35,772 bases of DNA from Gallionellaceae bacterium (lineage in GTDB: Bacteria > Pseudomonadota > Gammaproteobacteria > Burkholderiales > Gallionellaceae), in the NCBI GenBank assembly GCA_035260545.1, contig DATFUZ010000066.1, forward strand, positions 1-35,772. Reading direction: 5' to 3'. This document shows, in pieces, positions 2 to 15,231 of this stretch (positions within the stretch are counted from its first letter, which is position 1; every line of letters begins with the position of its first letter). The notes below the pieces were generated by a model. It made no database searches. It was not told where the DNA came from and worked only from the letters and a program-made list of their open reading frames with translations. Made by a program: the position numbers and the translations under genes.

Positions 2-1372
2 ATCCTGAAACACGTTTCAATTCCAAGCGATGCATCCGGCGCGGAACTTATTCAGATACTGGAACAAGTTATCGGAAGTAACGAACAACAGCGAAAGAAC
101 CGAGAGAAACTCCAAAGAGAGCTTAGCCACGGAGTCGCGCCACTCCCATATGCTTGGCGCCCTCGCAATGTTCTCGACGGCATATCCGATTTGCCAATGT
201 TATGGGAAATCTCGAAGGTTTCATCGTGGGGTGCGCGCCATCTGCATTTGACGATGGCAACAAACGACTGGAAGCCGACGGATCTCCCCGCTATGCGGTG
301 CCGTGTTCCGCTGCTAGATTTACTGTCGTTGATGGTGATTTCCGATCTTGATTTGTTTCGTCCACTATTTGGGCTATTTCCGAAGATTGCAGTTGGCAAG
401 GCTACAATGACAGAATTGCAGCGGCTGCTGACGCCCTTATCGGGGACCCTGTATCGGAATAAGATTGCCGCTATTCAAGTAGCACTAAAGGAGCATTTTT
501 CGCAAATTGAACAGCCCGAGGCTTCGCAGCCATCGAACGACCGCTTCGTTAGTGACCAATGGGACTCGTTAGAACTCATCGAAATAGCGAAGAGCGGGAG
601 GTACCTGGTTTACTCTGATGACGTGCTATTTAGAATCTATTCGCAACAGCCGGGAATTTGTACTCTGGACTTGCTCTGCGCGCTAGACGACACAGGCGAA
701 TTCTCTGCAAGGGACGTCGCAATGAAGATAGCAACGCTCTGCTCGTGGCGCGTCGGGCTGTCGATCACACTACGCTATCAACTCGCGATATTACCGGACG
801 CGTTAGGCGGAGCAAAAAGCATCAAAGAAGGGATCAATGTATTGTCTGCTGACGAGCACTGCAATGCACTTTTCAGCGCAATCTGGAATATTGAAAAGCC
901 ATTTGGCGATCTGCAAGGCCACGCGGGGTTGATTCTCAGGAAACTCGCCGACGACAAGAACAATTCAATAAAGAGCGTCGCGGCCCTGGCAGGTTTCTGG
1001 CTCAGCAAAGCTAAGCTGCATAAACAAGCTCCAGCGCCGATTGATCGCATGGTAGCGCTTTTAATTGGGCAGGCAACCTTTATCGAGCACCCAGTCACGG
1101 CGGAGGCTGCACATCGACTGTGGAGCGTGTATACGGATCTTATCGAGGACATCCATGGCCACCATATGGATGACGAGAAACTTTGGCAGTCTATTCGCAT
1201 CTTAGGAGAGGTAGCGGCAGAAAGCGATAGGCATCACTCGCATAGTGGCGCTAGATCATTGGGGACAAGGCTCGCCAGCGGCTTAATAACAGGCACAAGC
1301 GATTATGAGTTATTTAGCAAGGCGTACAACAGCAAGCTCATTTCTTTAGCGGCGCAAGACAAGCGGAAATGA
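2..1372 (+). CDS. Hypothetical protein, 5'-partial. Its reading frame is open from the window edge. The first ATG is at 191 and the stop is at 1372.
   Basis: This is the frame of the ORF-track entry 191..1372. I read codons from position 2 to 190 and found no stop, so the gene probably starts upstream of the window. The region is roughly 50% GC against a backbone near 65%. I recognised no family motif. Confidence 0.5.
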   Translation: MLKHVSIPSDASGAELIQILEQVIGSNEQQRKNREKLQRELSHGVAPLPYAWRPRNVLDGISDLPMLWEISKVSSWGARHLHLTMATNDWKPTDLPAMRCRVPLLDLLSLMVISDLDLFRPLFGLFPKIAVGKATMTELQRLLTPLSGTLYRNKIAAIQVALKEHFSQIEQPEASQPSNDRFVSDQWDSLELIEIAKSGRYLVYSDDVLFRIYSQQPGICTLDLLCALDDTGEFSARDVAMKIATLCSWRVGLSITLRYQLAILPDALGGAKSIKEGINVLSADEHCNALFSAIWNIEKPFGDLQGHAGLILRKLADDKNNSIKSVAALAGFWLSKAKLHKQAPAPIDRMVALLIGQATFIEHPVTAEAAHRLWSVYTDLIEDIHGHHMDDEKLWQSIRILGEVAAESDRHHSHSGARSLGTRLASGLITGTSDYELFSKAYNSKLISLAAQDKRK

Positions 1373-1528: not shown

Positions 1529-1963
1529 TTAGCTGGCGGAGGCTATCAGAGCGAGAATGCCTAGAACCGCGAGAAATCCGGTCCACTCCCTTGTTTGCGA
1601 GCTCTCAGAGGCGCCGCCGGTGACCCGATTGGCAAAGGTCTCACAGTTGTTGTCCAGCAAGTGGTAACCCGTACGGCCGGATACTTCCTGCTCGATCCGT
1701 CGCAAGGTCGCATCGTGCTCAGACATCGGCACCTCGCGAACTTTCTTGACCGGTTTCCCTGCGGTAAACTGTTCATACGTCACATAGTGTGGCCCCTTGT
1801 CACTGGTACTATGGGCAACGGTTCCGTCGAGAAGATGCACGCCCCAATGCTCGCCAGGTCCCGATAGCTTTGGTCGCACGATGAGTGAAATGGCGGAAGA
1901 TTGCGGAAAAGTAAGCCAACTGTAGAGACTCATAAGATCACCTATTCGAGAGGAGCCAGACAA
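1529..1963 (-). CDS. LRAT/PLAAT-like (circularly permuted NlpC/P60 papain-fold) acyltransferase/phospholipase-type enzyme with a C-terminal transmembrane anchor
   Basis: The 144-aa product has His-containing segments GEHWGVH and GYHLL upstream of a C-terminal NCETFANRV motif. That matches the LRAT-family NCEHF catalytic Cys box. A hydrophobic tail WTGFLAVLGILALIASAS follows. This His...His...Cys order with a C-terminal transmembrane helix is the LRAT/HRASLS architecture. The gene overlaps the upstream XRE gene by 26 nt, which suggests a shared operon. Composition is low-GC. Confidence 0.6.
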   Translation of the reverse strand: MSGSSRIGDLMSLYSWLTFPQSSAISLIVRPKLSGPGEHWGVHLLDGTVAHSTSDKGPHYVTYEQFTAGKPVKKVREVPMSEHDATLRRIEQEVSGRTGYHLLDNNCETFANRVTGGASESSQTREWTGFLAVLGILALIASAS

Positions 1964-2403: not shown

Positions 2404-3996
<1,593 letters not shown>

Positions 3997-4133
3997 GACT
4001 ATCTAATGAGATAATGTTATATCTTTATTTATATAGTTTTCGCATTCTCCCACGACAGCCCAGCGCCTGCAATAATACATTTCCCCCGTTATTTCAAAAC
4101 ACTATTAACTTTTTTCGGCCCTGACCGGCGCGC

Positions 4134-4149
4134 TGGCACGCTTTTCGCA
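4134..4149 (+). promoter_or_regulatory. Sigma-54 (-24/-12) promoter TGGCACG-N4-TCGCA driving the rtc operon
   Basis: The sequence is TGGCACGCTTTTCGCA. The consensus is TGGCACG-N4-TTGCA, so there is one mismatch in the -12 element. It lies in the AT-rich divergent intergenic region between rtcR and the rtc genes, where RtcR-dependent promoters sit. Confidence 0.55.
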
Positions 4150-4323
4150 AATAGGTATGCGGTCGCCGACCTGACGCAAGGCCCACGGGAAAGGGGTTCT
4201 AAGCCCCGCCGGTGCGCTGCAGCCGGATTCGGTTCTGTCGTTGCGGTGTATGCCGCCCCGCAGGAAAGTGATCACTGGCTAGAGGGCAATTTCAGTGAGT
4301 ACTCATCCTCACGAGTTGCCTGC

Positions 4324-4397
4324 CACTGGATAGCTCAGTTCGGTAGAGCAATCGACTGTTAATCGATTAGTCGCGGGTTCGAATCCCGCTCCAAAAA
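4324..4397 (+). ncRNA. tRNA-Asn-like (GUU anticodon) non-coding RNA element. It has an intact D-arm, anticodon arm and T-arm, but a degenerate acceptor stem and no CCA. It is a Y-RNA-like tRNA mimic in the rtc leader.
   Basis: The D-arm is GCTC-AGTTCGGTA-GAGC. The anticodon stem ATCGA/TCGAT carries the loop CTGTTAA (4356-4362), with the GTT anticodon at 4358-4360. The T-arm is GCGGG-TTCGAAT-CCCGC. The would-be acceptor strands are CACTGGA and TCCAAAA, which pair for only 4 bp. The 3' side continues AACTG rather than CCA. The element is on the same strand as rtcB, about 160-175 nt downstream of the sigma-54 promoter. Confidence 0.6.
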
Positions 4398-4657
4398 CTG
4401 TCTTGAACAGGCAGCTTTTAAAAACGCAGTACCCGCCGGTTGTGGCATGCGCAAGCATCCACCGCCGGCCCGGCCCGGCGCCCGGACCGCGATTGCGGCA
4501 AGGCCATGCCGGCCCGCGGCAGCGATGTAAGCCCTCATGCTTCGGCACGTGGGCAAGCAGAGCCGCCGAGGGCTCGCGGAAGCCTCCCCGCAATCGCCGA
4601 ACGGGTTGCCCGCCGGGCCGGCGCCAGACCGGCACATTTACATAAGGAGAATGGAAC

Positions 4658-5803
4658 ATGGCTATGCTGAAGCGTTTTGTGATCAAGAAGAATGAAAAGG
4701 GCGCGTTGCTGCGCAACGGCGACTTTGAGCGCATCCTGAGCGCGGGCCGCCATTACTTCTTCGACCCGCTGGGCCAGCTTTCGGTGCAGGTGTGGAAGAT
4801 CGACACCCCCATGCACGACCTGGCGACGGTGGACTACCTGGCGGAGCATGATCCGGAGGAGTTGGATGAGCACTTTGTTTGCATGACGTTGAACGAGGAC
4901 CAGGCCGGCTTGCGCTACGAGAACGATGTGCTGGTGGAGGTGCTGCCTCCCGCGTCGCGCCTGGTGCTGTGGAAGGGTTTCATGAAGCACCGCCTGGAGG
5001 TGGTAGACCTGACGCAGGACTACACGGTGAAGCCCGCGCTGGTGCGCCACCTGGCGCAGACCGCCCCGCGCGGCCGCCTGGTGAACGGGCTGAACGGCGT
5101 GCTGGTGGCGCAGGTGCCGCCCTACCATGTGGGCATGCTGAAGGTGGACGGCAAGATCGAACGCCTGCTGCAGCCCGGCGTGGAAGCGTTCTGGCGCTTC
5201 AACCGCAACATCGACGTGGTGCTGGTGGATACCCGCCTGCAAGCCATGGAGGTGAGCGGGCAGGAGATCCTCACCCATGACAAGGTGGGGCTGCGCCTGA
5301 ACCTGGCGGCGACCTGGCGCTACACCGATGTGCTGCTGGCGCACGAGAAGCTGGCGCGTCCGGCCGAGCATCTGTACCGCGAGCTGCAGTTCGGCTTGCG
5401 TGAGGCAGTGGGCACGCGCACTCTGGACGAGCTGCTGGAAAACAAGCAGGTCATCGACGAGGTGGTGGGCGCCCACGTCGCGCAGAAGCTGGCCGGCTTC
5501 GGGCTGGAGGTAGGCGGTGTCGGCGTGAAGGACATCGTGCTGCCGGGCGAGATGAAGACCATCCTGGCCCAGGTGGTGGAGGCGGAGAAGGCGGCGCAAG
5601 CCAACGTGATCCGCCGCCGCGAGGAAACCGCCGCCACCCGCTCGCTGCTGAACACGGCGAAGGTGATGGAGGAAAACCCCGTCGCCCTGCGCCTGAAGGA
5701 GCTGGAGACGCTGGAACGTGTGGCCGAGCGTATCGACCGCATCAGCGTGTTCGGCGGTCTGGACCAGGTGCTGAATGGCCTGGTGCAGATCAAGGGCGCG
5801 TAA
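4658..5803 (+). CDS. SPFH/band-7 (slipin/flotillin-like) domain protein with a ~190-aa N-terminal extension and no predicted N-terminal transmembrane helix
   Basis: The C-terminal half has the typical SPFH/band-7 segments VKDIVLPGEMKTILAQVVEAEKAAQANVIRRREETAATRSLLNTAKV and ALRLKELETLERVAERIDRISVF. The ribosome-binding site AAGGAG lies 8 nt upstream of the ATG at 4658. I could see no hydrophobic N-terminal helix. Confidence 0.8.
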   Translation: MAMLKRFVIKKNEKGALLRNGDFERILSAGRHYFFDPLGQLSVQVWKIDTPMHDLATVDYLAEHDPEELDEHFVCMTLNEDQAGLRYENDVLVEVLPPASRLVLWKGFMKHRLEVVDLTQDYTVKPALVRHLAQTAPRGRLVNGLNGVLVAQVPPYHVGMLKVDGKIERLLQPGVEAFWRFNRNIDVVLVDTRLQAMEVSGQEILTHDKVGLRLNLAATWRYTDVLLAHEKLARPAEHLYRELQFGLREAVGTRTLDELLENKQVIDEVVGAHVAQKLAGFGLEVGGVGVKDIVLPGEMKTILAQVVEAEKAAQANVIRRREETAATRSLLNTAKVMEENPVALRLKELETLERVAERIDRISVFGGLDQVLNGLVQIKGA

Positions 5804-5863
5804 TACCATGCCGCTGCCGGAAGGCGGCGGCATGGCCCATAATGAAACAAAGAGGAAGCAATC

Positions 5864-7081
5864 ATGGATTACCAACTGCTGGAAGTCGCAAACGGCAAGC
5901 CGATCAAGATGTGGACCGAAGGCGTGCCGGTGGAAGGCGAGGCGCAGAAGCAGCTGATGAACACGGCGCAGATGCCCTTCATCTACAAGCATCTGGCGGT
6001 GATGCCGGACGTGCACCTGGGTAAGGGCTCGACCATCGGCAGCGTGATTCCCACCCAGGGCGCGGTGATTCCCGCGGCCGTGGGCGTGGACATCGGCTGC
6101 GGGATGATGGCCGTGCGCACGACCCTTCAAGCCACGGACCTGCCGGATAACCTGCTGGGCCTGCGCTCCGCCATTGAGCGCGCGGTGCCGCACGGGCGCA
6201 GCAACTCCCGCGGCGGACGCGACAAGGGTGCGTGGGAAACGCCGCCGCAAAGCGTAGATGCGCATTGGGCGCAGTTGCTGCCGGGTTTCGAGCGCATCAC
6301 GGAGAAGCACCCCAAGCTCAAGAACACCAACAACCATAAGCATCTGGGGACGCTGGGAACTGGCAACCACTTCATCGAGGTGTGCCTGGACCAGGCGGAC
6401 GCGGTATGGTTCATGCTGCACTCCGGTTCGCGCGGGGTGGGGAATGCAATCGGCTCCCGCTTCATCGAGCTGGCGCAGCAGGATATGCGAGAGCACCTGG
6501 CCAACCTGCCGGACCGCGACCTGGCCTACCTGAAGGAAGGCACGCAGCACTTCGATGACTATATCGAGGCGGTGGGCTGGGCGCAAGATTTCGCCCGGCG
6601 TAACCGCGAGGTGATGATGGCCAATGTTGTGGCGGCCGCGCGCAGCGTGATCGCCAAGCCCTTCGAGACGGATGTGGCGGCGGTGAACTGCCACCACAAC
6701 TACGTGCAGAAGGAAACCCACTTCGGCGCGGAGGTGCTGGTGACCCGCAAGGGCGCGGTGTCGGCGCGGAAGGGGCAACTGGGCATCATCCCCGGCTCGA
6801 TGGGCGCGAAGAGCTACATCGTGCGCGGCCTGGGCAACGAGGAGTCGTTCTGCTCGTGCAGCCACGGCGCGGGACGCACCATGAGCCGGAACGAGGCCAA
6901 GCGCCGCTATACGGTGGACGACCAGATCAGCGCCACGGCGCATGTGGAATGCCGCAAGGATGCCGCGGTGATCGACGAGATCCCGATGGCCTACAAGGAC
7001 ATCGATGCGGTGATGCAGGCGCAGCGCGCGCTGGTCGAAGTGGTGCATACGCTGCGCCAGGTGGTCTGCGTGAAGGGCTGA
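5864..7081 (+). CDS. rtcB: RtcB RNA-splicing ligase (3'-phosphate/2',3'-cyclic phosphate to 5'-OH RNA ligase)
   Basis: The 405-aa product is near-identical in layout to E. coli RtcB. Matching segments are MPDVHLGKGSTIGSVIP, GVDIGCGM, HLGTLGTGNHFIE, CHHNYV, SCSHGAGR and the tail LRQVVCVKG. The ribosome-binding site GAGGAAG lies upstream. Confidence 0.95.
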   Translation: MDYQLLEVANGKPIKMWTEGVPVEGEAQKQLMNTAQMPFIYKHLAVMPDVHLGKGSTIGSVIPTQGAVIPAAVGVDIGCGMMAVRTTLQATDLPDNLLGLRSAIERAVPHGRSNSRGGRDKGAWETPPQSVDAHWAQLLPGFERITEKHPKLKNTNNHKHLGTLGTGNHFIEVCLDQADAVWFMLHSGSRGVGNAIGSRFIELAQQDMREHLANLPDRDLAYLKEGTQHFDDYIEAVGWAQDFARRNREVMMANVVAAARSVIAKPFETDVAAVNCHHNYVQKETHFGAEVLVTRKGAVSARKGQLGIIPGSMGAKSYIVRGLGNEESFCSCSHGAGRTMSRNEAKRRYTVDDQISATAHVECRKDAAVIDEIPMAYKDIDAVMQAQRALVEVVHTLRQVVCVKG

Positions 7082-7210
7082 AAAACTACTGCGGAAACCG
7101 CCTGCGGCGTTGTTCGGTGCTCGGCATCCTCATGTACTTAAACGTACACTGCGGTGCCTGCGCGCCGTGCGCCTTGCATCCGGCCTTCTCGCCACGTCTT
7201 TTTACCAACC

Positions 7211-7242
7211 GGAAGGTCCGGAGATTGACCTTCCTTTTTCTT
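7211..7242 (+). terminator. Rho-independent terminator or attenuator between rtcB and the downstream nucleotidyltransferase gene
   Basis: The stem is GGAAGGTC (7211-7218). The 8-nt loop is CGGAGATT. The second stem arm is GACCTTCC (7227-7234). A T-tract TTTTTCTT (7235-7242) follows immediately. Confidence 0.5.
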
Positions 7243-7243
7243 G

Positions 7244-7259
7244 AGACACAAAAGTGTGT
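7244..7259. promoter_or_regulatory. Perfect palindrome GACACA-AAAG-TGTGTC just upstream of the nucleotidyltransferase gene ribosome-binding site. It is a candidate operator or internal promoter element.
   Basis: The palindrome is 16 bp with 6-bp arms. It lies directly after the terminator and about 20 nt before the ribosome-binding site GGAGAG. Confidence 0.25.
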
Positions 7260-7278
7260 CAGTTTAATTCTGGAGAGC

Positions 7279-8100
7279 ATGATGGACAGCATCAAACCAA
7301 CCATACTCAGTGCACACCCGATACAGCCGGAGGTGCGCGCGCGCATCGTCGAGGCGCTGGAGCAGATCGAGGCGGAACACCAGGTAAAGGTGCTGTTCGC
7401 CTGCGAGTCGGGCAGCCGCGGCTGGGGCTTCGCCTCGCCGGACAGCGACTACGACGTGCGCTTCGTCTATGTGCACAAGCTGCCGTGGTACCTGACGGTG
7501 CACGCGCCGCGCGATGTGATCGAATTGCCGATCAGCGACGAGCTGGACGTGAGCGGCTGGGAACTGCGCAAGGCGCTGCAACTGCTGCGCAAATCCAACC
7601 CCACGCTGCTGGAATGGCTGGATTCGCCCGTGGTGTATCGCGAGGACGCGGCTTTCGCCGAGCGCATGCGCCGCTTCGTGCCGGAATTCTTCTCCGGACA
7701 GGGGGTGCGCCACCACTATCTGTCGATGGCGAAGAAGAACTTTCGCGGCTATCTGCAGGGCGAGAGCGTGCGGCTGAAGAAGTACCTCTACGTGCTGCGC
7801 CCGCTGCTGGCGGTGCGCTGGATAGACGGCGGGCGCGGCATGCCTCCGATGCGCTTTGCCGACCTGGCGCAGGCGACGGTGGACGACGCCGCGCTGGCGC
7901 ATGAAATCAACCGCCTGCTGGAAATCAAGATGCGCGCGGGCGAGGCGGAGTACAGCGCACGCTGGCCGGCCATCCACGACTTCATCGCGGCCGAGCTGGC
8001 GCGGGTGGAGCGCAGCCCGGAGCACGCGAGGCCGGCCGGGAGCACGGCGGTGCTGGACCGCTTCCTCGCTGAAACGGTGCGCGCGTTTTCGCGCGCCTGA
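7279..8100 (+). CDS. Pol-beta-superfamily nucleotidyltransferase domain protein (predicted NTase family associated with RNA-repair loci)
   Basis: The N-terminal segment is VLFACESGSRGWGFASPDSDYDVRFVY. This is the G[SG]-x9-13-D-x-D minimal nucleotidyltransferase signature. I chose the ATG at 7279, which has the ribosome-binding site GGAGAG 2-7 nt upstream. The ORF track extends further upstream, but that extension has GC-artefact composition. Confidence 0.8.
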   Translation: MMDSIKPTILSAHPIQPEVRARIVEALEQIEAEHQVKVLFACESGSRGWGFASPDSDYDVRFVYVHKLPWYLTVHAPRDVIELPISDELDVSGWELRKALQLLRKSNPTLLEWLDSPVVYREDAAFAERMRRFVPEFFSGQGVRHHYLSMAKKNFRGYLQGESVRLKKYLYVLRPLLAVRWIDGGRGMPPMRFADLAQATVDDAALAHEINRLLEIKMRAGEAEYSARWPAIHDFIAAELARVERSPEHARPAGSTAVLDRFLAETVRAFSRA

Positions 8101-8119
8101 GGATTAACACAGGAACTGG

Positions 8120-9148
8120 ATGGATGACATGAACATGCTGAATCTGGACGGATCGCAAGGCGAAGGCGGCGGGCAAATCCTGCGCAGCGCGCTGACGCTT
8201 TCCACGATCACCGGCACGCCGTTCCGCATCGAGCGCATTCGTGGGGGACGCGCCAAGCCTGGCTTGCTGCGCCAGCACCTGACGGCGGTCACGGCCGCCG
8301 CGGCAGTCAGCGGCGCGCAGGTGTCCGGGAACGCGCCGGGGTCGCAGACCCTGGAATTCGTTCCCGGCGCCATCCGCGGCGGCGACTACCGTTTCGACAT
8401 CGGCACGGCGGGGAGCTGCACGCTGGTGCTGCAGACGGTGCTGCCCGCGCTGTGGTTCGCCGACGGCCCGAGCACGATCACTGTCAGCGGCGGCACACAC
8501 AACGGCGCCGCGCCGCCCGCGGATTTCCTGATCCGCTCCTGGCTGCCGCTGATGCGGCGCATGGGGGTGGAGATGGACATCGAACTGGAGCGCCACGGGT
8601 TCTACCCGGCGGGCGGCGGGCGGGTGCGCGCATCGGTCACGCCTTGCGGGAGCTTGCTGCCCCTGCATCTCGAGGCGCGTGGAGAGCATATCGCCACCCG
8701 CGCCGTCGCGGTCGTCGCAGGTCTGCCGGCCGAGATTGCGGGCCGCGAACTGGATCATCTCGCGGCGACATTCAGCGAGGCGGAATGCGAAACACGGGTG
8801 CTGAGTTCGCGCGAAGGCCCGGGCAACGTGGTGATGGTCGAAATCAGCCACGCCAGCCACACCGAGGTCTTCACCGGTTTCGGCGAAAAGGGGCTGCCTG
8901 CCAAAACCGTGGCCGCACGGACCGCACACGCGGCCGCGAGCTGGCTGGCCAGCGGCGCAGCGGTGGGCGAGCATCTGGCGGACCAGCTGCTGCTGCCGAT
9001 GGCGCTGGCAAAGGGGGGCGCTTTTACGACCGCGCTGCTGTCCTCGCACACGCGGACCAACATCGGCGTGATCGAGAAGTTTCTGCCATTGGAGTTCGAT
9101 GTCGCGCAGGAAGACGGCATCCACCGGGTAAGCCTTACCCGGGAATAG
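8120..9148 (+). CDS. rtcA: RtcA RNA 3'-terminal phosphate cyclase
   Basis: The 342-aa product is collinear with E. coli RtcA. Matching segments are LDGSQGEGGGQILRSALTLS, RAKPGLLRQHLTAV, GGDYRFDIGTAGSCTLVLQTVLPALWFADGPS, RHGFYPAGGG and AVGEHLADQLLLPMALA. Confidence 0.9.
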   Translation: MDDMNMLNLDGSQGEGGGQILRSALTLSTITGTPFRIERIRGGRAKPGLLRQHLTAVTAAAAVSGAQVSGNAPGSQTLEFVPGAIRGGDYRFDIGTAGSCTLVLQTVLPALWFADGPSTITVSGGTHNGAAPPADFLIRSWLPLMRRMGVEMDIELERHGFYPAGGGRVRASVTPCGSLLPLHLEARGEHIATRAVAVVAGLPAEIAGRELDHLAATFSEAECETRVLSSREGPGNVVMVEISHASHTEVFTGFGEKGLPAKTVAARTAHAAASWLASGAAVGEHLADQLLLPMALAKGGAFTTALLSSHTRTNIGVIEKFLPLEFDVAQEDGIHRVSLTRE

Positions 9149-10547: not shown

Positions 10548-10790
10548 CGCCCTGTGCTTCCGGCGGCATGCCGTTCAAACGGCAAGGCCGGCGCGAGCCC
10601 AAGCCCAAGCCCCTCTCAAATCGGGCTGATTTCCGGGGGAGCCAGCCAGCCCATATGCCCTGCCAGAAATGGCGGGGCTTTTTTCTGGTGCATGGCCGCT
10701 TTGCGATGTTCCATTCGCTGAGTATCAGGCCGGCAGCGTGCCCGGAACGGACATGATGTTTGCAGATAAGCGGACCTTTTGTAGATTAAT

Positions 10791-10855
10791 GGGTGGAGCG
10801 TAGCGATACCCAACAGCTTATCCCCGAACTTGATGGGTATCGCTGCGCTCCACCC
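10791..10855. repeat. 22-bp inverted repeat (GGGTGGAGCGTAGCGATACCCA ... TGGGTATCGCTGCGCTCCACCC, 1 mismatch) with a 21-nt spacer. It is a large stem-loop at the boundary of the low-GC islet.
   Basis: I read the arms directly at 10791-10812 and 10834-10855. The element lies 25 nt downstream, on the minus strand, of the stop of the 391-aa gene. No U-tract follows on either strand. Confidence 0.5.
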
Positions 10856-10879
10856 ATCCCACGCTCGCTCATCTGCGCT

Positions 10880-12055
10880 TCAGTTTGAGCTAGGCTCAGC
10901 CTTTTTGGCCTTTGCCGCATAAGCCGGATCGAACGATGATATTGGCTTCAGCTTTAAGTCGAATGGCTCGTACTTGCCCTTGAACTGAGGCTCTCCCGGC
11001 AGGCGAGCGATGTCCCTCCAGTAGGTCGGCTCCGCCCTCGCCTCACTTTCCGTGCGAGATCTCCTAATGCATCTAGCAACGACTTGACGACACGTGTCGT
11101 CGAGCAGCAACATGTTCTTGTAGCCGCTCGCACACGCAGAGAGCAGTTGGAGCAGCGCAGTGAGCGCGGCTGTTGCAGCAGGCAAGTCTGGTTGAGACCC
11201 GCGGTGTATAAACTCATTGCGGGCTTTACGAGCAATGTTAAGCCATCGATACGTTTCCGCCTCGATGAACCCTTTCTGAAACATCATTTCGATACGGGCC
11301 GAGGTGGTCCAGACCCGATAGTCCTTGAGAAATGCGCTTCGATTGGGGATAGCATCGACCGACACCTTCGACTCGACTTCGACGCTCCACATTCGACTAA
11401 TTACCTGTTCTATTGAGGTCCAAAGACAAGTTAACGCTTCAGCCAGTGCGCCAGCGACATAGTGCGTTGTGCCAGCCAACGCTATTTCAGGACTAAAGGG
11501 TTCGCACTTATCCAGTATCGCGCGTCCGCGAGCGATGGCCTTTTTTAGGGCCGCAAGGGTGATTGGCGTATTATCGAGCAGTACGATGTTGTCGCTGATG
11601 CTGGCGCTGCGATCTCGGAGGGAAAAATGCAGCGCTGTTTTTCGGCTCGTGCCACCAAACATTCGTATGTAGCCGGTATTAAAGAGCCATCCCCTACAAA
11701 TATCAGAGGGTGCCGCCCCCTCTGTGTATACCCCGCCAAGAAGCATCTCGAGAAATACGCGATTGAAAAGTTTTAGGGCGGCATCCGGCTTTGAGAACTC
11801 CGGCAGCGCAGGCATAGCCAAGCTTCCATCGAAGCCGACCAGCATCATGTACGGCGCCACGTTGCCATCGATAAACCCACTTGCACGATTGAGTTTCAAG
11901 TAGTCGTAGGTCGACCGATTGATGTCCTGCAACGAAGGCTTCCAACTGTCGCGCCCGTCTTTCGCAATGAGCTTTAGTGGTCCACTTACGGCCATTACAA
12001 GAGGCACTCCATCGGGCATGGTCGGTTCGGTCATCGTTTGCATTGTCCTATTCAC
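10880..12055 (-). CDS. Hypothetical protein (391 aa) with a HEPN-like R-N-x3-H motif (…ARKARNEFIHRG…). It is a candidate Abi/HEPN-type RNase. The start codon is uncertain. It is a GTG at 12055, with in-frame ATGs at 12043 and 12034.
   Basis: The gene lies in a low-GC islet. I recognised no named family for the N-terminal half. The RNEFIH motif at residues 279-284 (nt 11204-11221) matches the HEPN Rx4-6H signature. The protein has no transmembrane segments. Confidence 0.55.
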   Translation of the reverse strand: MNRTMQTMTEPTMPDGVPLVMAVSGPLKLIAKDGRDSWKPSLQDINRSTYDYLKLNRASGFIDGNVAPYMMLVGFDGSLAMPALPEFSKPDAALKLFNRVFLEMLLGGVYTEGAAPSDICRGWLFNTGYIRMFGGTSRKTALHFSLRDRSASISDNIVLLDNTPITLAALKKAIARGRAILDKCEPFSPEIALAGTTHYVAGALAEALTCLWTSIEQVISRMWSVEVESKVSVDAIPNRSAFLKDYRVWTTSARIEMMFQKGFIEAETYRWLNIARKARNEFIHRGSQPDLPAATAALTALLQLLSACASGYKNMLLLDDTCRQVVARCIRRSRTESEARAEPTYWRDIARLPGEPQFKGKYEPFDLKLKPISSFDPAYAAKAKKAEPSSN

Positions 12056-12155
12056 TGTACGCTTTGGCTATCCTGATAACGCCGATCAGACGGATTTCAA
12101 TCCTGTTCCTCGAAACTACTGAGGCTTAACAGAGCTCGCGGGGCGCAATAAGCGT

Positions 12156-12243
12156 GCGTAGCCCGGATGCAGCGGAGCGGAATCCGGGTTGAGTCCGCAG
12201 GTTAACCCATCCCGGATTCAATTGCATTGCATCCGGGCTACGC
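12156..12243. repeat. Nested inverted-repeat element. An outer 16-bp perfect inverted repeat GCGTAGCCCGGATGCA/TGCATCCGGGCTACGC encloses an inner 9-bp inverted repeat GAATCCGGG/CCCGGATTC.
   Basis: The outer arms are at 12156-12171 and 12228-12243. The inner arms are at about 12180-12188 and 12211-12219. The element lies immediately 3', on the minus strand, of the 180-aa gene's stop at 12248. It is upstream of the 391-aa gene's promoter region. Confidence 0.5.
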
Positions 12244-12247
12244 TTGC

Positions 12248-12790
12248 TCAAAGGAGGGTTTTGCGTTTTCCCCGTTCCGGGTCGGTAAGCCAGAAAATAA
12301 GCACGGCCGCCAGCAAGGCCATGAGGGCGGCGGATTGCCCCCAAGCTACGCTCCCAAAATAGCGAAGGTATATGCCGGCAATAGCCAATACCACACCGAG
12401 CGCGCCGGCCGCCACGCGCAGCGCGGATGGCCACTGGCGTACCTGCGCCGGTAGCCGGGACGCAGGCCGCGGCTGGTCTATCTGCTCGCCGCTCTCGCAC
12501 GTCTCGCCGTCGTCTCCCTGCACCTTTGCTGCGAATTCGCGCGCCATGACCACCATCTTGTCGACGATCGCCTTGTCCGGGTTCTTGGTATAAATTTGCC
12601 CGTTTTTCCAGTCGAACCATGGCTCCGCATATTCGCACTTGCCGTGCCACATCGTGAAATATGGTCCTTGGTCCGGCAACAACTGTAGTTCTGAATCGCG
12701 TTCGACGTAGGCCAGCCATTCGGCGGCGGTGATCTCATTACCTTCGTCAATCCAGTGGTCGCGTCGAGTTATATGAAAATCGTAGCCCAC
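12248..12790 (-). CDS. Hypothetical membrane protein (180 aa). It has a ~110-aa N-terminal soluble domain and two C-terminal transmembrane helices.
   Basis: The GTG start at 12790 is preceded by the ribosome-binding site AGGAA with 5-nt spacing. The hydrophobic helices are ALRVAAGALGVVLAIAGIYL and SAALMALLAAVLIFWL. The gene is low-GC. I recognised no family. Confidence 0.55.
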   Translation of the reverse strand: MGYDFHITRRDHWIDEGNEITAAEWLAYVERDSELQLLPDQGPYFTMWHGKCEYAEPWFDWKNGQIYTKNPDKAIVDKMVVMAREFAAKVQGDDGETCESGEQIDQPRPASRLPAQVRQWPSALRVAAGALGVVLAIAGIYLRYFGSVAWGQSAALMALLAAVLIFWLTDPERGKRKTLL

Positions 12791-13345
12791 GTCTGTTCCT
12801 ATCGATTGAAATCGGTCTTCAAGGGCGATTCAAAGTCCGGCGCCCTTATAAAAGAAACAGCACGGCGGACGTCGGTTTATGGGACAACTCCGTCCTTCTG
12901 GATCGTCCGCTTGCGAGCAGTCTACTTGAGGGGGCAATCGGCTGCAATCGTGGAGCATTGGGGATCAGGCAGCGTTTTATTGAAGACCGTTGCGGGGTAT
13001 GGAATGCCAGGCGGCTTGCCGGGTGCTGCCGGCGAAATCGCTTTCGCGATGTGGATGTGCGCTTTCCCGACCGGCAAGGCACTTTCGGTAGCTTGCCCCT
13101 TCACAACACGATTTGAGAGGGGCTGGGCGCGAGCCGGCCTTGTTTTGATCCGGCCGGGCAGGCCTGCATTATCCTCCGGTGGCGCCGCCTGTCGCCCGGG
13201 CGCCGGCGCGCAAATGGTGCGATGGCGAACGTCGGGCATTCCGCCGCGATCGCATTGCAAACCCACTGTTTCGCCCCCATCTCCGGGCTATCTGCCCCCT
13301 TCCGCGGGGCGGAACTCGTGCTGCCTGCGGGCGCCCAAGCCGGGG

Positions 13346-13351
13346 TATAAT
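13346..13351 (+). promoter_or_regulatory. Candidate -10 box (GGTATAATT context) for the RNB exoribonuclease gene
   Basis: TATAAT lies 30 nt upstream of the start at 13381. Confidence 0.3.
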
Positions 13352-13380
13352 TCCGTATGGATTTCGGCGCAGTTTGGTAA

Positions 13381-15231
13381 ATGAATGTATTTTATGAAGA
13401 GGACGGGGGCTTCAAGGTCGGCACCGTCTTGACGGACAACACGACCTCGATGCACGTGGAAAGCCTGCACGGCAAGCGCAGCAAGATCAAGGCAGCCAAT
13501 GTGCTGTTGCGATTTACCCAGCCCGGCCTGAGCGAGTTCCTGGCTCAGGCGGAGGACGTTGCCGGCGGGATGGATGTGGAGTTTCTCTGGGAGTGCAGCC
13601 CGCCGGAGGAATTCGCCTTCGAAACGCTGGCGGCGGAGTATTTCGGCCACCCCCCCAGCCCGGCGGAGGCCGCGGGCGCGCTGATCCGACTGCATTCGGC
13701 CCCGATGTACTTCTACAAGAAGGGCAAGGGCCATTACAAGGCGGCGCCGCCGGATGCGCTCAAGGCAGCCCTGGCCGGTGCGGAGAGGAAGCGCTTGCTC
13801 GCGGAGCAGCAGGCGCAATTCACGGCGCAACTGTCGGACTTCACCCTGCCCGCGGAATTCGAGGGCAAGATACCGGAGCTGCTGTACAAGCCCGACCGCA
13901 ATACGATTGAAGTGAAGGCGCTTGAGGCGGCGTGCGCCGCGACCCATCTTTCGGCGGCGCACCTGCTGGAGCGCTGCGGGGCGATCCCGTCCAGCCACGA
14001 CTATCATTTGCAGCGCTTCCTGTTCGAGCATTTCCCGCGGGGCACGGGTTTTCCGCAGGTGAGCGTGGACATGCACCCGGAGCTGCCGCTGGCCGAGGCG
14101 CGCGCCTTCAGCATAGACGACGCGGCAACGACGGAAATCGACGATGCCTTCTCGGTGGTGCCGCTTCCCGGCGGCAACTGGCGCGTGGGCGTGCACATTG
14201 CGGCGCCCGCCTTGACCATCGCGCCCGGCTCGCCCGTGGACGAGATCGCGGGGCAACGGCTGTCCACCGTCTATATGCCGGGCAGCAAGATCACGATGCT
14301 GCCGGACAACGTGGTGCAGGCCTTCACCCTGAACGAGGATACGACCTGCCCGGCCGTGTCCATGTACCTGGAAGTGGATGCGGACACGCTGGAGATCAGG
14401 GGCACAGAAAGCCGCATCGAGCGCATCCACATCGCGAACAATCTGCGCCACGACACGCTGGAGCCGCTGTTCAACGAGGCGACACTCGCTGCGGGCAAAC
14501 GTGACTATCCCTACGCCGCCGAACTCGCGCTGCTGTGGAATCTCGCCGGCAAGCTGGAAGCGTTGCGCGGGAAATCCGCCGATAGCAACGCGCAGCAAAT
14601 GGATTATAATTTCCATGTTGAAGACGACCGCATCGCCATCAGCGAACGCAGGCGCGGCTCGCCGATAGACAAGGTGGTGAGCGAGCTGATGATCTTCGTC
14701 AACAGCGCGTGGGGCAAGCTGCTGGCCGAGCACAATGCAGCCGGGATTTACCGCACCCAGAACGGCGGCAAGGTCAAGATGAGCACGGTGCCCGGACCGC
14801 ATCAGGGGCTGGGCGTGGCGCAATATCTGTGGTCGAGTTCGCCGCTGCGGCGCTACGTGGATCTCATCAACCAGCGCCAGATCGCGGCCGTGCTGCGCGG
14901 GGAAACGCCGCCCTATGCGCCGAATGATCCGGCGATCTTCGCCGCGATGCGCGATTTCGACGCCGCTTATGCGGTCTACAACGAGTTCCAGCGCGGCATG
15001 GAGCGCTACTGGTGCCTGCGCTGGCTGCTGCAGGAGAACGTGAAGGAGGCCGAGGCCGTGGTGCAGCGCGAAAACCTGGTGAAGCTGGCGCGCATTCCGT
15101 TTTACGCACGCATTCCGTCCCTGCCGGAATCGCCGCCCAATACCCGCGTCATGCTGGAGATCGGCGACATCGACCTGCTGGACATGGAATTCAAGGCGCG
15201 ATACATCAATACCGTGGAGGCAACTGCTTGA
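13381..15231 (+). CDS. RNB-domain 3'-5' exoribonuclease (RNase II/R family)
   Basis: The RNB catalytic motif FSIDDAATTEIDDAFSV is present. The C-terminal signature YLWSSSPLRRYVDLINQRQ matches the RNase II/R SPIRRY region. The product is 616 aa. Confidence 0.85.
   Translation: MNVFYEEDGGFKVGTVLTDNTTSMHVESLHGKRSKIKAANVLLRFTQPGLSEFLAQAEDVAGGMDVEFLWECSPPEEFAFETLAAEYFGHPPSPAEAAGALIRLHSAPMYFYKKGKGHYKAAPPDALKAALAGAERKRLLAEQQAQFTAQLSDFTLPAEFEGKIPELLYKPDRNTIEVKALEAACAATHLSAAHLLERCGAIPSSHDYHLQRFLFEHFPRGTGFPQVSVDMHPELPLAEARAFSIDDAATTEIDDAFSVVPLPGGNWRVGVHIAAPALTIAPGSPVDEIAGQRLSTVYMPGSKITMLPDNVVQAFTLNEDTTCPAVSMYLEVDADTLEIRGTESRIERIHIANNLRHDTLEPLFNEATLAAGKRDYPYAAELALLWNLAGKLEALRGKSADSNAQQMDYNFHVEDDRIAISERRRGSPIDKVVSELMIFVNSAWGKLLAEHNAAGIYRTQNGGKVKMSTVPGPHQGLGVAQYLWSSSPLRRYVDLINQRQIAAVLRGETPPYAPNDPAIFAAMRDFDAAYAVYNEFQRGMERYWCLRWLLQENVKEAEAVVQRENLVKLARIPFYARIPSLPESPPNTRVMLEIGDIDLLDMEFKARYINTVEATA

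Follow-up and report, generated by a model that had tools for sequence, protein, structure and literature searches.

Do two adjacent genes of atypical composition in a Gallionellaceae contig make up a defence system, and if they do not, what is each of them? The window, by which we mean the whole stretch of 35,772 nucleotides (nt) that was analysed (63% GC), contains an islet with two minus-strand open reading frames (ORFs), here called genes A and B, each followed by a stable hairpin. An earlier note had located both ORFs and both hairpins correctly, and had taken A for an orphan RNase effector of the HEPN type, B for its membrane partner, and the hairpins for brackets around the pair, made of unusual structured repeats. 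It was right about HEPN and wrong about the pair and its brackets. Gene A encodes a HEPN protein of a large family that is solitary, patchily distributed and moves horizontally as a single gene; we favour, with moderate confidence, the view that it is an RNase triggered by invading elements. The features of the islet are the following.

10657..10688, plus strand: intrinsic terminator-like site of the backbone gene encoding a DUF4197 protein, at the left edge of the atypical-GC islet.
10789..10857: inverted doublet of the repetitive extragenic palindromic (REP) type, a REPIN-like hairpin downstream of A (hairpin 1).
10880..12055, minus strand: gene A, 391 amino acids (aa) from a GTG start; GenBank HKB60174.1; matches P0001 at 100%.
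10883..11065, minus strand: C-terminal tail of A, residues 331-391.
11066..11503, minus strand: helical HEPN (DUF4145-like) domain of A, residues ~185-330.
11204..11221, minus strand: R279-N280-E-F-I-H284, which is an Rx4H motif of the catalytic type, as the sequence itself shows.
11561..12013, minus strand: N-terminal alpha/beta domain of A, residues ~15-165.
12034: alternative ATG start of A (M8), giving 384 aa; this is the NCBI-annotated start and the one conserved among homologues.
12151..12248: another inverted doublet of the REP type, located in the A-B spacer and touching the stop codon of B (hairpin 2).
12248..12790, minus strand: gene B, an ORF of 180 aa, 100% identical to GenBank HKB60175.1.
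~12275-12433, minus strand: two C-terminal hydrophobic helices of B.

The assignment of A to the HEPN superfamily combines a fold and a motif. The AlphaFold2 (AF2) model of the protein (predicted local distance difference test score, pLDDT, 92.2; predicted template modelling score, pTM, 0.91) contains the up-and-down helical bundle shared with solved HEPN domains, and the conserved Rx4-6H motif is present as R279-N-E-F-I-H284, encoded by CGC AAT GAG TTT ATA CAC on the minus strand. We estimate that an R-N-x3-H motif is expected by chance ~0.02 times per protein of this length, and chance alone would often produce the looser R-x4-6-H motif; it is the combination with its invariance and the predicted fold that makes RNEFIH count. 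Invariance was assessed in an alignment of 58 members of the family, which have 22-62% identity to the window protein. Only nine columns are invariant (N98, G108, G177, W212, E216, R279, N280, H284 and P353), including three positions of the motif and, elsewhere in the HEPN domain, W212 and E216. When the same members were scanned one by one against Pfam, 30 of the 58 matched DUF4145, as the best Pfam match and over a stretch that surrounds the Rx4H motif, at E<=0.1 (best E 3.6e-6), and other HEPN models (HEPN_Swt1, RiboL-PSP-HEPN, Apea-HEPN) gave 10 further matches. DUF4145 was assigned to the HEPN superfamily by Anantharaman et al. 2013 (PMC3710099) and belongs to the Pfam clan HEPN/KNTase_C. 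With this motif, a HEPN domain is a metal-independent RNase, dimeric in action and toxic when active (PMC3710099). We conclude that A belongs to the HEPN superfamily, at the edge of Pfam DUF4145, as the motif had suggested.

Gene A is not the orphan that it had been taken for. A word-index search gave 80 homologues that are full-length, at 33-100% identity, and an exhaustive profile search with the family found 1058 clusters (50% identity) at E<=1e-3, of which 157 at E<=1e-30. In a scan of species-representative genomes, homologues occur in Beta- and Alphaproteobacteria, Bacteroidota, Acidobacteriota, Chloroflexota, Verrucomicrobiota and Planctomycetota, while those of Gammaproteobacteria (Pseudomonas, Stenotrophomonas) were found by protein search. 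The family is already in the databases under the names 'hypothetical' or 'DUF4145 domain-containing' protein: the latter is the NCBI name of the Piscinibacter homologue, and another homologue (P0037) carries a precomputed PF13643 match. We found no paper on the family in the literature, no match to A in NCBIfam, and no match of the family profile to PDB sequences.

Homologues align with A over its full length, and the family keeps to one two-domain architecture throughout. A mixed alpha/beta domain of at least seven strands, modelled at pLDDT >90, takes up residues ~15-165; in it, N98 is invariant, with R57 and Y129 almost so. No Pfam model matched this domain in any of the 58 members, neither their alignment nor the AF2 model has conserved cysteines or a cysteine cluster there, and a fold search of the viral structures in BFVD with A returned nothing at E<=1e-3. 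We presume it to be a sensor or regulatory domain. The C-terminal tail has a conserved motif of its own, W346 ... P353-G354-E355, with G354 nearly as conserved as the invariant P353. It is modelled at a pLDDT of 71 in residues 331-340, 83-94 in the blocks of residues 341-380 and 65 in residues 381-390 (values per 10-residue block), and may serve as an interface or for autoinhibition. Homologues with seemingly different architectures (N-terminal extensions or the N-terminal domain alone) carry no Pfam domain, and the six that we inspected look like mis-called starts or fragments.

The genetic context of the family is that of a gene that travels alone. We compared the flanks of A at 36 loci, up to 8 kb or as far as the contig allowed, and found no conserved neighbour ORF of >=70 aa in an all-against-all comparison and no conserved small ORF within 700 nt of A. 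The gene itself is of atypical composition: in the window, its GC content is 53.7% and its GC content at third codon positions (GC3) is 0.60, and A is of lower GC than the distant flanks at 23 of 28 loci. Carriage by mobile elements is occasional. In Stenotrophomonas pigmentata, A is part of a prophage, where replication/RecA-dependent-nuclease genes flank it on one side and HNH/terminase genes on the other. In Burkholderia latens (L011 6670-12833), it directly follows a P4-type integrase (Arm-DNA-bind_3, Phage_int_M, Phage_integrase) and precedes a PriCT_2-Toprim-DUF927 primase, and is cargo there, as expected of the layout in P4-like satellites or integrative elements; one of the four IMG/VR contigs with A (L040) has the same integrase-A-primase arrangement. 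On one metagenome contig, A is in an island with an integrase and a PLD-family nuclease. Of the Pfam families in the 122 nearest neighbours from 31 loci, Phage_integrase comes first, with 6 matches; Dsr1, AbiE, a defence-type reverse transcriptase (DRT) and PD-Lambda-2 occur once each.

Two loci have a further gene beside A that deserves mention. In Piscinibacter koreensis, the gene directly downstream of A (L001 7300-7791, equivalent to L005 9195-9761) encodes a protein of 163-188 aa with an R-N-D-L-M-H motif of its own and no Pfam match. On an IMG/VR contig (L038 8116-8868), a 250-aa protein downstream of A has a weak match to MtlR, which is HEPN-like (E 4e-4). The A loci of these two lineages may thus carry tandem HEPN genes. 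We also considered synteny between the window and the Uliginosibacterium A locus (L004), where the upstream ORF has 616 aa, as does the RNB-family gene of the window; tblastx similarity is confined to gene A, and the equal length is coincidental.

How does A relate to the HEPN systems already described? The closest precedents are single proteins that sense an invader directly. RAZR (PD-T7-4), the ring-activated zinc-finger RNase of E. coli, combines a zinc ribbon with DUF4145, assembles around phage ring proteins, is thereby activated and cuts RNA (PMC13017515). Its N-terminal domain is a Cys4 zinc ribbon, whereas that of A is an alpha/beta domain of ~165 aa devoid of a cysteine cluster; A is also about twice as long and has the extra conserved tail. 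We thus rejected the identification of A with RAZR, given the missing zinc ribbon and the lack of any PADLOC match at E<=1 in a library that lists PD-series systems such as PD-Lambda-2 and that we assume to include a PD-T7-4 model. HepS, the abortive-infection protein of the Gifsy-1 prophage, is an anticodon nuclease triggered by a siphovirus tail-tip protein (PMC13043305; PDB 9oik). It has ~218 aa and is essentially a HEPN domain only, whereas A has a large additional N-terminal domain, and we detected no sequence similarity between the two. The anti-plasmid proteins Ishtar1/2 (bioRxiv 10.64898/2026.07.06.735840) and BxaP (PMC10799925), also single-gene immunity proteins, resemble A in pairing an uncharacterised second domain with a HEPN domain of the DUF4145 or DUF3644 type. 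In Ishtar, this second domain is alpha/beta with 5-7 strands, and the genes are known from P4 satellites and from the vicinity of defence genes (bioRxiv 10.64898/2026.07.06.735840). Here the second domains are compared by description; the HEPN domain is N-terminal in Ishtar and BxaP and C-terminal in A, and this opposite placement led us to reject A as a member of either. The N-terminal domain of A is also not among the DUF4145 fusions of the 2013 survey, which lists REase, SF-II helicase, Sel1, zinc ribbon, transmembrane plus SH3, UvrD, TIR, sigma-HTH, DpnII-NTD and AbiJ-NTD1 (PMC3710099).

Two further HEPN arrangements were considered. A HEPN-MNT pair was rejected: there is no nucleotidyltransferase ORF in the islet of the window, and none among the 25 most frequent of the 88 Pfam families of the 122 neighbours. 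Another type of trigger is exemplified by the CARF-HEPN proteins Csm6 and Csx1, and A could be a ligand-gated RNase in parallel to them, its N-terminal domain binding a small molecule (a nucleotide second messenger provided in trans, or a stress metabolite) instead of sensing a phage protein. We regard this as rather improbable. As for A being a CARF-HEPN protein itself, the N-terminal domain gave no CARF-type match among the best 60 fold matches, and the fold matches of A to Csm6 align 143-153 residues, which we take, the aligned residues not being given, to be the helical HEPN part. No cas context was seen at the A loci, except for one match to a Cas1_IIIb model among the 122 neighbours, and we rejected the assignment of A to the CARF-HEPN proteins.

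From these comparisons, and by analogy with RAZR and HepS, we propose that A is a stand-alone conflict protein of two domains, alpha/beta at the N-terminus and, at the C-terminus, HEPN of the DUF4145 clade with the Rx4H motif intact. Since the gene has no antitoxin, the protein would have to be held inactive by its own extra domains. It would be switched on when the N-terminal domain, perhaps together with the C-terminal tail, senses a phage or another invading element; the HEPN domains would then assemble into an active RNase site with tRNA, rRNA or mRNA as its substrate, and the cleavage would halt the growth of the infected cell, an immunity of the abortive-infection type. We infer the RNase activity, the self-inhibition, the trigger and the defence phenotype from these precedents, and judge this account of a self-inhibited, invader-triggered RNase to be somewhat the better bet. 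More tentatively, the N-terminal domain may be a previously undescribed sensor fold, in which case the family could be a broad single-gene system of abortive infection or anti-plasmid immunity with a trigger unlike those of RAZR and HepS; we hold this possibility to be real and a little short of even.

Several observations weigh against a role of A as an invader-triggered RNase. All the support for the mechanism comes from sequence, model and analogy. The window protein itself scores 13.3 bits against DUF4145 (PF13643; E 0.086), below the gathering threshold of 23.1. No PADLOC model, candidate systems included, matched A at E<=1; A is unmatched in PHROG and in 50,697 phage genomes, and has just two weak matches in plasmids. 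Many A loci are small one-gene insertions amid housekeeping genes, with no known defence gene nearby, and the enrichment of defence genes near A is modest and comes from raw neighbour counts. Finally, some HEPN proteins, such as MtlR, are regulators and not nucleases.

This last point belongs to an alternative in which A has nothing to do with defence and is an enzyme for housekeeping or stress RNA processing, an MtlR-like regulator on a HEPN scaffold, or a selfish addictive element. The strict invariance of R, N and H speaks for catalysis, and a housekeeping role fits poorly with the patchy distribution, the atypical GC content and the integrase and prophage contexts. The neighbourhood that could suggest RNA processing in the window, the Rtc and RNB genes described below, recurs at no other A locus. 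A non-defence role is thus unlikely in our view.

If A is an invader-triggered RNase, it would add to a class of one-protein HEPN immunity (RAZR, HepS, Ishtar) in which direct sensing of the invader has been shown only recently, and in which every additional sensor domain indicates another molecular signature of infection. The family is widespread, uniformly two-domain, and absent from PADLOC 2.0 and, as a full-length family, from Pfam. It is a candidate new family of this class, but not a conceptually new one. It is also a cheap and well-defined candidate for tests, given the high-confidence model and the clear catalytic-dead controls R279A and H284A.

Is B the partner of A? The case for a two-gene defence or toxin-antitoxin module, with A as RNase effector, B as membrane protein and structured repeats as boundaries, starts from the adjacency of the genes on the same strand and from their atypical composition. 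The region's sole sigma-70-like promoter match (13195-13168, minus strand) is upstream of B, so that co-transcription of B and A through the intervening hairpin is possible, and the membrane region of B has a weak match to the Cpta_toxin model (E 0.062). This match is limited to the hydrophobic helices of B and falls far under the cut-off. The low GC claimed for both genes (52-55%) holds for A and not for B, which has 59.1%. Its GC3 (0.69) also differs from that of A, the flanking DUF4197 and RNB genes being at 0.84 each: A and B are both compositionally foreign, yet unlike each other, which suggests that they were acquired separately. Around the islet, we found no insertion scars other than short direct repeats at chance level.

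The comparison of genomes gives a clearer answer. No B homologue was found by tblastn at the 36 A loci, nor among the called genes of three further ones (0/39 in total), and no A homologue was found in six contexts of the B family, including that of the nearest relative of B. The linkage in other genomes that the earlier note had made the touchstone of its proposal is thus missing, and hairpin 2, at -67 kcal/mol, stands between the two genes. We consider the two-gene module very improbable. B is an independently acquired gene that neighbours A by chance; adjacency and low GC are not in themselves evidence of a module, and neither B nor the hairpins should be carried forward with A.

B itself was described correctly as a hydrophilic N-terminal part followed by two hydrophobic segments (~residues 120-142 and 146-172). 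Its conserved part is an N-terminal domain of ~100 aa (MGYDxHITRR...VQGDDGE), which is found either by itself or in fusion with a small, beta-rich C-terminal domain. Among the aligned members, only the window protein and P0082 have the membrane C-terminus. P0082 is the nearest relative (81% identity, same two-helix C-terminus) and is encoded between NADAR and SnoaL-like genes, while the five other homologues are in unrelated neighbourhoods. We found no consistent Pfam match for B in 21 members and no sequence match in the PDB. Genes of the SnoaL_3/DUF4440 type are near B-family genes in 3 of the 6 independent contexts, directly downstream in the case of P0082 (L042 2133-2519, L043 875-1261, L171 1-522, L172 6125-6556).

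The hairpins are the remaining element of the proposed module. The inverted repeat of hairpin 1 has 27-nt arms that are 93% complementary, that of hairpin 2 has 44-nt arms that are 77% complementary, and their RNA foldings, at -55 and -67 kcal/mol, are far more stable than those of shuffled sequences (z-scores of -6.5 and -7.9). Each arm is itself palindromic (TGGGT...ACCCA in hairpin 1, CCCGGAT...ATCCGGG in hairpin 2). The repeats are not specific to this locus. The 22-nt unit of hairpin 1, GGGTGGAGCGNAGCGATACCCA, is present in at least 120 metagenome contigs, and its inverted doublet in 49 of the contigs listed, mostly at an offset of 43-48 nt (43 nt in the window). None of the listed contigs with the unit carries a homologue of A or B. 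These contigs (L048-L127) come from many soil and freshwater samples and range from 46 to 70% GC; such a spread of one REP sequence over apparently different organisms is notable. Hairpin 1 has no match in plasmids. On two unrelated plasmids, of Thiodictyon and Methylocalor, unannotated DNA between genes matches a single arm of hairpin 2, and units related to hairpin 2 are found in REP1 loci.

Short palindromic units, in inverted doublets, at many dispersed intergenic sites, are what characterises REP elements and REPINs (REP doublets forming hairpins). Like the REPINs of proteobacteria, a concept said to originate with Bertels and Rainey in 2011, the hairpins consist of two inverted palindromic units of 22-31 nt with a short spacer in an intergenic space. 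The 36-kb window has one copy of each doublet. We conclude that the hairpins are generic, REPIN-like doublets and not part of a gene system, so that the unusual brackets of the earlier note turn out to be dispersed repeats. They may act as transcript ends or stabilisers, and neither has a T-tract. We rejected the reading of the islet as integron cassettes: ACCCAAC and GATGGGT are in the inner part of hairpin 1 and not at its boundaries, hairpin 2 has no RYYYAAC/GTTRRRY boxes of an attC site, and no integrase gene was seen on inspection of the islet.

The other genes around the islet raise a last question, that of a link between A and RNA repair. An Rtc RNA-repair locus lies 1.7 kb from A (window 2404-9148), and an exoribonuclease gene is on the other side of the islet:

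2404-3996, minus strand: RtcR, sigma-54 activator.
4324-4398: tRNA-Asn(GTT), between the divergent rtcR and Band_7-rtcB-rtcA.
4658-5803: Band_7/SPFH protein.
5864-7081: RtcB ligase.
8120-9148: RtcA cyclase.
13381-15231: RNB-family exoribonuclease.

RtcB and RtcA act on 2',3'-cyclic-phosphate ends, as produced by HEPN RNases. We rejected a functional link of A to the Rtc operon or the RNB gene, given that neither Rtc nor RNB genes are found at any other A or B locus, and their presence next to A looks like a coincidence. The divergent region of the Rtc locus is an unusual place for a tRNA-Asn(GTT) gene; the Rtc operons of other bacteria carry tRNA-like Y RNAs. Between B and the divergent RNB gene there is a stretch of 590 bp without genes (12791-13380), in which no RNA family or tRNA was detected and which contains a terminator-like site (13119-13141, plus strand).

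Across the Rtc locus, the window starts with another low-GC islet (1-2500, GC 51-52%), which has two ORFs. The one at 1529-1963 (minus strand, 144 aa) matches an LRAT/NlpC-like family. The other, at 191-1372 (plus strand, 393 aa), has a borderline match to the PIN domain of the TPR-GreAB-C-PIN system (27.1 bits for a cut-off of 27.8) and is putatively another conflict gene of the RNase type.

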